Positions 33,001-36,000 of a stretch of DNA of 64,000 bases are shown piece by piece. The position numbers were made by a program. Origin of the DNA: Escherichia coli (GTDB taxonomy: Bacteria > Pseudomonadota > Gammaproteobacteria > Enterobacterales > Enterobacteriaceae); NCBI RefSeq assembly GCF_013315695.1, contig NZ_CP054353.1, one strand, 5' to 3'. Within the stretch, counting starts at the first letter, position 1, and the number at the start of each line of letters is the position of its first letter.

Positions 33001-36000
33001 AGGGTATATGGAATAGTTTTAACGTTCGGCAGGATCAGTGACGCGGCAGTATCCGAGTGCGCAGGGTTAATATGCGTAGGGGCAGCTGCCATAACAGGGA
33101 ATATAGTTTGTGTTATCAGGCAAATACCGGCGGTCAGACGACGTAAACGATCCCCCAATCCACATATGGTGTTATCGCCCCGACGATCGCCATTCCCATG
33201 AGCTTTCCCTGCCATTTGTCATCCCTGTCGCTATGCGTTCAGATTAAATGACCTTTCTTTAACATGAGGGAAAATGATGATTCATGATTAGCAAATGATG
33301 AATACAGGCGGAATAATGGAAATAACAACAAGATAAGAACAATACCTGATCAAGGGTTATCAGGGGGAAGAACAGGAGAGCTTTCCCGCCAGAGCAATAA
33401 CCCTCCTGTAAATACGTTACTTCATTTTCACCTTTGCGGTGACCAATAACGCCGTCAGCAACATCAATGTGCCGGACAACATCAACGGCGAAGTCAGACC
33501 AATATTATCCAGCGCATAACCGCCGATTGCCGCGCCACAGGTATTAGCAAGCTGAATAACCGCCACCTGAATAGACCCGGCTTTTTCTGCCTGATCGGCC
33601 AGTGAGCGGGTGATCCACGTTGACCAGCCGACAGGAACCAATGCAAAAGTTAGCCCCCAGATAATCGCCACGCCGGTAGCAACGATTTTATCGCTTCCCC
33701 ACAACGTCAGCACCAACGCACTCACAGCCAGTATTAACGGCGCGCCTGCTAAGGCCAGTTTTACCGAACGTTTAAGAATGAACGACGAAAGCGACGTACC
33801 AATAAAGCTGGCGATACCAAAACTCAACAGCACCAGCGTTAAGCCATCCACGCCGAATCCCGCCAGGTTCATATACACCGGGCGAATATACGTGAAGAAA
33901 GCAAACTGCCCGGCGAAAGACATGAAGATGGCGATCATCCCTGCCATCACACCCGGACGTTGTAATAAGCGGAAAGTATTTTGTTTCTGATGCGAGGGTT
34001 CGCCTGGCAGCGAAGGCAATGATTTGATAATCCAGAAAATACACAGCACGCCCATCACCGCCGCCGCATTAAAGACATTGCGCCAACCGATAAGCTCGCC
34101 TAAAAAACTGCCCAACGGTGCGGCAATCACCAGCGCAATAGAAACCGCGCCGAAGATCACCGACAGCGCCTTCGGCACCGTACGCGGCGGTACCAGACGC
34201 ATGGTCAGCGACGCCGACATCGCCCAGAACCCACCCAGCGCCAGCCCCAGACAGGCACGACCGATTAAAAGCAAACTGAATGAGTTAGCAAAGGAAACCA
34301 GCAAGCAGGAGAGCGTCAGCAAAACGGCAAACAAAATAACAACATAGCGGCGGTCAGTGGCCTGAATTGTCTGGGTAATAAACAAACTGGCAAACATTGC
34401 CACAAAGGCGGTCACGGTCACCGATTGCCCGGCAACCCCTTCCGAAATGCCTAAATCCTGGGCCATTGGCGTCAACAAACTGACGGGCAAAAACTCAACG
34501 ATAATCAGACAGGCGACGCAAAACGCCACCGAGAAAACGGCTGACCAGTTCGGTCGGGTGATGGCATCCGCGCCGCGGTTTTCGGCAATAAATTCACTCA
34601 TGGTGTTACCCGTGGCATGTTTCAGGGGAAAAGCCGACCACTTTAACATTGAAATGTGTGACGCATTTAACGTTTTTGCAACTTTTACGGTGTTGTGGGA
34701 AAAGTTCGAGGCTACTCGAAGAAATAAAAATCATAGGGCAAGGTGATATGCATTTTCGCAATGGGGTTGGGAATAAGGGATAAAGTATTGCACTTGGTGA
34801 TATACTTTAATAACAGGATCTCAACGATATACGCGTGTTTAAAACCAAATAGTTTGCAAGGGAAGCCAGGTCTCATGCAATGACAGATGAAGAGTTGTGC
34901 CGGGCCATTTTAGAAACGGAACAAGGTAAAGCTGATGTACTTGGTGGTGGCGTTTTTAAAAAGCGCCTTCACCGAAATCGTGAGCGTGCAATTATTCTGG
35001 CAAAAGGGGGAAGCAATTGGTTTTACACGTTTTTATATGCAAAACAGGATATGTCGAACATCAATAGTCAGGAACTGGCTGGGTTTCGTGAACTTGCAAA
35101 GCATTATGCCTTCCTGACGAAAGCCCAACTAACAGCAATGATTAACACTAAAGAACTGACAGAGATCTGCTATGACTGCAAAAACTAAATTTAAAAGTCC
35201 TGCATTTGAGGCTATTCACAGCGCAGCGGCTGGATTGTCCAGCGTCGATGCTATTTCTGCCGAAACGATGCGTACTTTTGACAAAGCCTGCCTGACCAGC
35301 GTGCAAGACTTACAACCTGTTGAGATAAAAGCACTGCGGGAAAAATTAAAAGTGAGTCAGCCCGTCTTCGCTCACTATCTCAATACCAGCGTTTCAACTG
35401 TACAAAAATGGGAAAGTGGCGCTAAACGCCCCAATGGCATTTCATTAAAACTGCTCAGCATTGTGCAAAAACACGGGCTGGAGGTGCTGCTGTAAATAGA
35501 ACGTAGATAATGCGTTCACCTACTGTCAGTTCCAATACCGGATGCGGCGTGAACGCCTAATCCACCCTACAGGTCAGGCGCGGTCTGTAGGCTGATAAGA
35601 CGAAGCGGTTTTAATGCAGCCAGTGAACGCCCTCGGCAGGCTGAAAGAACGCGTTATAGCGCATCTGAAAAGCATTAATATCCTGCATTTCAGGTTCGGT
35701 TTCGCGCAGAAAACCCAGCGCCAGCCTGACCTGAGCATCAGTAATCGGCGCGGCAAGGCGGGCTTTTTGTAAAATCCGATGCCATTGCAGCATGTTCTGT
35801 TCGCTACCATCGACAATGACAATTTGCCAGATGAGCAACACCTGCGCGGCGTTTTGCAGGTGCGACTCATCCGGGCGATGCAAATAACGTAAAAATTCGT
35901 CACCGGCTGACTTTCCCATTTGATCGACCATCGACTCCACGGGTACGACATCGATGTTCAGCCGATCGCTGAGACGGCGAATCGCTTTTCTGGCCCCGGA

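Follow-up and report, generated by a model that had tools for sequence, protein, structure and literature searches.

A probable decayed HigB-2/HigA-2-type toxin–antitoxin operon beside nepI in Escherichia coli, with a broken toxin gene and an intact antitoxin gene

Two small overlapping genes lying between nepI and yicN were analysed in a 64 000-nucleotide stretch of Escherichia coli DNA (NCBI RefSeq assembly GCF_013315695.1, contig NZ_CP054353.1), referred to below as the window. The pair is very probably what is left of a HigB-2/HigA-2 type II toxin–antitoxin (TA) operon, ancestral at this site beside nepI, in which the toxin gene is broken and the antitoxin gene is intact. The break is an amber codon at the position of a conserved Trp8 codon, and the simplest history is that an ancestral Enterobacteriaceae nepI–yicN locus has been removed by deletion from K-12-like lineages and is undergoing decay in the present one. 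Feature coordinates are collected in table 1.

The open reading frame (ORF) listing of the window gave ORF1 (102 aa) and ORF2 (107 aa), overlapping by 17 bp (35172-35188), exactly as reported in an initial annotation made from the sequence, which had described them as a HigB/HigA-like TA pair. The peptide motifs GGGVFKKRL and GGSNWFYTFLYAKQDMSNI quoted in that annotation were found in ORF1, and the ORF coordinates bear out its toxin-first order. The arrangement of two small co-oriented genes with a short overlap and the toxin first is that of a type II TA system. In approximately 1700 E. coli genomes, the two genes already have RefSeq labels, those of a type II RelE/ParE toxin and a helix-turn-helix (HTH) protein; a literature search by locus (nepI, yicN, toxin–antitoxin) and by RefSeq protein accession turned up no publication about the pair in E. 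coli.

Interruption of the toxin gene

Upstream of ORF1, the frame reads I-R-V-F-K-T-K-(stop)-F-A-R-E-A-R-S-H-A-M, the final Met being the start of ORF1. At the corresponding positions, strain SE15 has ATG (34829), TGG (34850) and ATA (34880), and encodes a 119-aa protein. The SE15 toxin begins with MRVFKTKWF, an N-terminus conserved in the Citrobacter and Salmonella proteins, in homologues further removed and in the Coxiella toxin ToxP; homologues in other genera are likewise 119 aa long and begin with MR(V/I)FKT(K/R)WF. In a structural model of the intact allele, strand β1 (residues 2-6) and helix α1 (residues 7-15) both lie upstream of Met18, and the 102-aa product would be devoid of these two elements. 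A complete, uninterrupted toxin coding sequence (CDS) including β1 and α1 was not found in the window, the frame being broken by the TAG. The initial TA reading was thus upheld for the two families and their order, and failed for the toxin gene itself, which is not an intact 102-aa gene but a 119-codon gene with Trp8 changed to amber.

The ancestral start codon also varies. At 34829, the window strain and O157:H7 have ATA and SE15 has ATG, with a GTG following two codons on, at 34835. In O157:H7, this GTG is the start assigned by the Prokaryotic Genome Annotation Pipeline (PGAP), and the toxin is otherwise intact. ATA at 34829 places the conserved Shine-Dalgarno (SD) sequence approximately 16 nt from GTG 34835, which could amount to a natural cut in toxin translation there. 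In the window strain, the toxin gene is most likely a non-functional pseudogene, with the locus now encoding an antitoxin/repressor alone; loss of toxicity is what we infer from the truncation.

Toxin alleles across E. coli genomes

Population counts were made over 5426 complete E. coli genomes. The locus was present in 1716, of which 1574 had TGG and 137 had the amber TAG at codon 8. Sequencing error was rejected as the origin of the TAG, which is carried by 137 independent complete genomes. The ATG at 34880 was found in 161 genomes, and since 24 of these (e.g. SMS-3-5) combine it with TGG, the Met18 codon is older than the amber; the proposal that it arose afterwards as a compensatory new start was rejected for the same reason.

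A second lesion, a 1-bp deletion (one A) at 35144, was present in 131 genomes and causes a frameshift that removes the C-terminal strand of the toxin together with the invariant E112. Three frameshift genomes were fetched; all three also had the TAG as well as extra missense changes, were flagged 'frameshifted' by PGAP, and encoded an antitoxin (WP_000125643.1) identical to that of the window. That a second lesion was added to the amber while the antitoxin stayed unchanged indicates that selection has ceased to act on the toxin in this lineage. The locus thereby presents a natural series of TA decay within one species, with an intact form (approx. 1574 genomes), an amber form (137), a frameshifted form (131) and a K-12-like form that is deleted and scarred.

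Toxin family, fold and catalytic residues

Profile hidden Markov model searches agreed with the HigB-2/RelE-like identity first proposed for ORF1. PF06296 ('RelE') was its sole Pfam match (E = 8.9e-31, 107 bits, cut-off 27) and was covered from profile position 19 to 120 of 120; when Trp8 was restored in silico, the match rose to 132.7 bits (E = 1e-38) and extended over positions 3-120. Vibrio cholerae HigB-2 (VcHigB2) belongs to PF06296 (PMC11980606), and the VcHigB2 sequence, identical to PDB 5JA9 chain C, scored 34.5 bits against this family in a direct scan. The gene is a HigB-2 family member by descent, of which the window holds a truncated copy.

The intact E. coli allele was modelled with AlphaFold2 at a pLDDT of 91.8. 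In a Foldseek search of the PDB with this model, ranks 1-10 were all VcHigB2 (probability 0.99-1.0, TM 0.44-0.62), and the modelled toxin fold is of the RelE type (BECR) and resembles that of VcHigB2. The VcHigB2 residues R51, R64, Y82 and K84, which are catalytic (PMC5416850), were paired by hhalign with R46, R53, Y70 and K72 of the toxin in a weak alignment (E = 8.9e-4); R46, R53 and K72 were at least 90% conserved among 37 homologues. Ribosome-dependent mRNA cleavage is known for VcHigB2 (PMC5416850), and by analogy the intact toxin may be an RNase acting in the same way.

The antitoxin

ORF2, in which an XRE-type HTH had been noticed at the outset, matched HTH_3 (E = 6.7e-08, 32.9 bits, cut-off 23), and is an intact HigA-2-type antitoxin/repressor. 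Its best PDB match was V. cholerae HigA-2 (VcHigA-2; 5JAA, E = 8.3e-10, residues 46-102), and it shares 55% identity with Coxiella AntitoxP along the full length. An N-terminal segment of approximately 45 residues precedes a C-terminal XRE HTH domain. This segment, the presumed toxin-binding part, aligns with AntitoxP from residue 5 and is conserved in Citrobacter and Salmonella. All four lineage genomes that were fetched encoded the same protein, WP_000125643.1. Scores were below the curated cut-offs for MqsA_antitoxin PF15731 (26.3/30), TIGR03830 (41.1/61.8) and NadS NF041265 (41.3/60), the MqsA and NadS similarity being restricted to the HTH region of the antitoxin and to the C-terminal part of each profile.

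Promoter and operator region

An imperfect palindrome was found by inverted-repeat search upstream of the toxin frame, overlapping a putative extended -10 element read by eye. Citrobacter and Salmonella keep the core of the palindrome, which is perfect in C. koseri (TATAGCACT-A-AGTGCTATA). E. coli, C. koseri and Salmonella all have GTGnTATACT without variation, and the four upstream regions that were aligned do not differ in ACAGGAT, which contains the SD-like sequence. The combination of palindrome, -10 and SD is the layout expected of an operon autorepressed by its antitoxin, and makes the palindrome a candidate operator; by analogy with HigA2 and AntitoxP (PMC10098735), it may be bound by the antitoxin.

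On the other side of this region, the mechanical ORF of nepI (33417-34649, 410 aa) exceeds the annotated gene (1185 bp, end at window 34601). The positions of nepI (33417-34601, minus strand) and yicN (35611-36063, minus strand) were taken from the annotation in RefSeq of a genome with 100% identity. With the annotated end at 34601 and not 34649, the nepI start is approximately 230 bp from the toxin start, and the divergent promoters lie within one short intergenic region.

For the intact form, as in SE15 and O157:H7, the following scheme is proposed. The single extended -10 promoter, overlapped by the palindrome (34781-34809), would drive both genes. The first gene would give a RelE-fold toxin of 117-119 aa which, judging from its homology to VcHigB2 and ToxP, would cleave mRNA on the ribosome by means of R46, R53, Y70 and K72. 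Translation of the two genes may be coupled, because they overlap by 17 bp. The N-terminal segment of the antitoxin would fold onto the toxin and block it, and repression of the operon would come from an HTH dimer of the antitoxin bound to the palindrome. In the window allele, the amber at Trp8 leaves an ORF that starts at Met18, without β1 and α1, and the toxin is most likely inactive.

Origin of the locus and deletion in K-12

The pair had not been recognised as part of the K-12 core at this position, and the comparison agreed with that view: on BLAST of the K-12 nepI–yicN region against the window, an 840-bp segment holding the whole TA operon (34696-35535) was replaced by 41 bp in K-12. 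The right boundary of the segment abuts a repetitive extragenic palindromic (REP) sequence common to the window strain and K-12. In Citrobacter koseri, a 119-aa PF06296 gene and a 107-aa HTH gene are present between nepI and yicN (DUF1198), with yicS beyond nepI, and in Salmonella enterica the pair is present beside nepI and yicS; gene arrangement and sizes are the same in both, and toxin identity is approximately 70%. In the 41-bp K-12 filler, CTTGAGCTGGAGTTAAGATCGAAACGGAACAGGGCAAAGAT (positions 3047-3087 of the K-12 region), 19 nt match the toxin codons E-T-E-Q-G-K with 17/19 identities. Both mismatches are synonymous, and the score was reached by 3 of 2000 shuffles. Given the same site in C. 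koseri and Salmonella and the toxin-gene scar in K-12, the pair was lost by K-12.

All 5405 E. coli matches were chromosomal, and in nearly all genomes they fell in one place. The ORF listing showed no integrase or transposase within 34696-35535. The fixed site, the synteny in C. koseri and S. enterica and the K-12 scar do not fit a mobile element or genomic island. A few E. coli genomes matched just the last 46-85 query bases (the yicN 3' end and REP), which suggests that the nepI–yicN interval has further structural variants beyond its two main states.

Alternative explanations

Several observations weigh against a decayed HigB-2/HigA-2 operon. All four catalytic residues, R46, R53, Y70 and K72, lie downstream of Met18 and are retained in the 102-aa ORF, a weak SD-like AGG is present 9-10 nt upstream of ATG 34880, and PGAP annotates this ORF as an intact CDS for a RelE/ParE toxin with no pseudogene flag. 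The window haplotype has the amber without the 35144 frameshift, and the placing of the 131 frameshift genomes within the 137 amber genomes was derived from the three fetched genomes and from overlapping accession lists. The sequence link to VcHigB2 is weak: PDB sequence searches with the toxin returned no match, either by single-sequence phmmer or with a 37-sequence profile, and the hhalign probability was just 23%; the link was made through Pfam membership, hhalign and the fold search. A simple two-hexamer scan of 34560-35700 found no sigma-70 promoter or terminator. The catalytic residues and the PGAP call, together with a PF06296 score for the 102-aa ORF far above the cut-off, would suit a fully functional TA module, in which translation from ATG 34880 yields a shorter but active HigB-2-type toxin that the antitoxin neutralises. 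We regard this as unlikely: the ORF is without profile positions 1-18, which correspond to β1 and α1 of a confident model; conservation of the MRxFKTxWF N-terminus extends from E. coli to Coxiella; the ATG was already present as a polymorphism before the amber and is not a start selected after it; and most amber genomes have gained the frameshift that deletes the C-terminal strand with E112, which is unexpected for a gene under selection. It is very improbable that the pair is an accessory or mobile cassette which some E. coli lineages gained recently by insertion between nepI and yicN, a strain-specific event implied by the initial annotation. The absence of the pair from K-12 and from approximately two thirds of complete E. 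coli genomes, the REP sequences at its right edge and the homologues on plasmids of other genera would be in keeping with it; the conserved position next to nepI in both C. koseri and S. enterica, with a toxin identity of approximately 70%, the chromosomal and nearly always single matches, the lack of integrase or transposase genes in the segment and the toxin-coding remnant at the empty K-12 site contradict it.

Toxins of the RelE/ParE superfamily have been discussed as defence toxins (PMC11980606), and a TA-like anti-phage defence system in place of a housekeeping or addiction module was also considered. This was rejected, since PADLOC had no defence model matching the toxin and gave just weak generic HTH hits for the antitoxin; with neighbouring defence genes absent and the toxin inactivated in this strain, it is barely credible. 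Also improbable, though less so, is a role for the antitoxin on its own. The antitoxin has stayed intact while the toxin was inactivated at least twice, and it may now act alone, either to regulate other genes (possibly at the promoter region of the divergent nepI) or to counter incoming plasmid-borne HigB-2-family toxins as an anti-addiction factor; alternatively, the 102-aa product may be weakly active. On the preferred reading, that of a decayed operon, the 102-aa 'toxin' CDS annotated in such genomes is probably what remains of a pseudogene, and persists as an ORF through an in-frame ATG that is there by chance.

Repetitive extragenic palindromic elements and the yicS–nepI segment

REP elements lie directly downstream of the pair, as recorded initially, and include one copy with a single mismatch to the REP consensus. 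Rfam gave sub-threshold hits only; that of the REP-derived naRNA4, at 35502-35567, is consistent with REP, and those of the eukaryotic families mir-5350 and ceN126 were discarded as chance. Between yicS and nepI, the window has a segment of approximately 15.4 kb (18046-33416) that is absent from K-12, and which we take to resemble the eip/eilA/air island of enteroaggregative E. coli.

Table 1. Features of the nepI–yicN interval and of the neighbouring yicS–nepI segment (window coordinates).
Feature	Position	Strand	Basis or remark
Full-length toxin frame	34829-35188	+	119 codons and stop; translation, alignment to SE15
Amber TAG in place of conserved Trp8 codon TGG	34850-34852	+	SE15 alignment (SE15, TGG)
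Truncated remnant ORF (ORF1), PGAP CDS WP_000128917.1	34880-35188	+	Met from Ile18Met (ATA to ATG)
HigA-2-type antitoxin/repressor (ORF2), 107 aa, intact	35172-35495	+	HTH_3, VcHigA-2 and AntitoxP matches
Segment with whole TA operon, 840 bp (41 bp in K-12)	34696-35535	.	BLAST of K-12 nepI–yicN region against window
Imperfect palindrome TAAAGTATTGCAC-ttg-GTGATATACTTTA, candidate operator	34781-34809	.	Inverted-repeat search; overlaps -10
Putative extended -10, TGaTATACT	34798-34806	+	Read by eye; cross-genus conservation
SD-like CAGGAT for ancestral start 34829	34814-34819	+	Upstream alignment
REP cluster	35503-35608	.	Sequence from 35536 onward common to K-12
Partial inverted REP copy	35503-35519	.	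Part of REP cluster
REP	35538-35563	.	One mismatch to REP consensus
REP copy in opposite orientation	approx. 35585-35608	.	Part of REP cluster
SipB-like protein	19094-20875		yicS–nepI segment
ORF without Pfam match	20888-22039		yicS–nepI segment
Type III tip-complex (SipD/IpaD-like) protein	22083-23432		yicS–nepI segment
HilA-like regulator, Trans_reg_C and TPR domains	23635-25023		yicS–nepI segment
IS1 transposase	25034-25537	-	yicS–nepI segment
Inverse autotransporter adhesin annotated IatC, 2351 aa	26160-33215	-	yicS–nepI segment

Comparison with known systems

V. cholerae HigBA2 and Coxiella ToxP/AntitoxP have already established the family, fold, mechanism and regulation of such pairs, and the genes are named in RefSeq; the E. 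coli pair itself is apparently without experimental characterisation, and its intact allele, present in O157:H7 and SE15, makes it easily testable.

K-12 HigB/HigA (YgjN/YgjM) and Rts1 HigBA are likewise toxin-first type II systems with a RelE-superfamily toxin and an HTH antitoxin. Their HigB families are PF09907 and PF05015 (PMC11980606), neither of which appeared in a Pfam scan of the toxin at E up to 0.1, and E. coli HigB structures matched the toxin model poorly (TM approx. 0.31). MqsA and NadS resemble the antitoxin HTH region in their C-terminal domain, at scores below the curated cut-offs.

HigBA2 of V. cholerae is a superintegron cassette, whereas the E. coli pair is a fixed chromosomal neighbour of nepI, with the toxin truncated in this strain. 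V. cholerae HigB-2/HigA-2 (VCA0468/0469; PDB 5JAA, 5JA8, 8A0X) shares with the E. coli pair the family PF06296, the best structural match, the aligned catalytic residues, the toxin-first order and an antitoxin made up of an N-terminal segment followed by a C-terminal HTH, HigA-2 being also the best PDB sequence match. Toxin identity to VcHigB2 is just 20-24% (approx.), and the E. coli toxin differs in being without the long basic β2-β3 loop (ASKGKGKRGGS) and in having an extra C-terminal helix and strand.

Among relatives characterised by experiment, the closest one found was ToxP/AntitoxP of Coxiella burnetii (CBUA0028/CBUA0027, plasmid QpH1), for which toxicity, rescue, translation inhibition and promoter binding have all been demonstrated (PMC10098735). 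ToxP is 32% identical to the E. coli toxin over its full length, including an MRIFKTRYF N-terminus, and the antitoxins are more similar still. The Coxiella pair differs in being plasmid-borne with a role in plasmid maintenance, and ToxP differs in having the long β2-β3 loop and, in its CDS as annotated, an extended N-terminus. As in the window strain, the toxin is also found truncated in Coxiella, in one genomic group (PMC10098735, Table 1).

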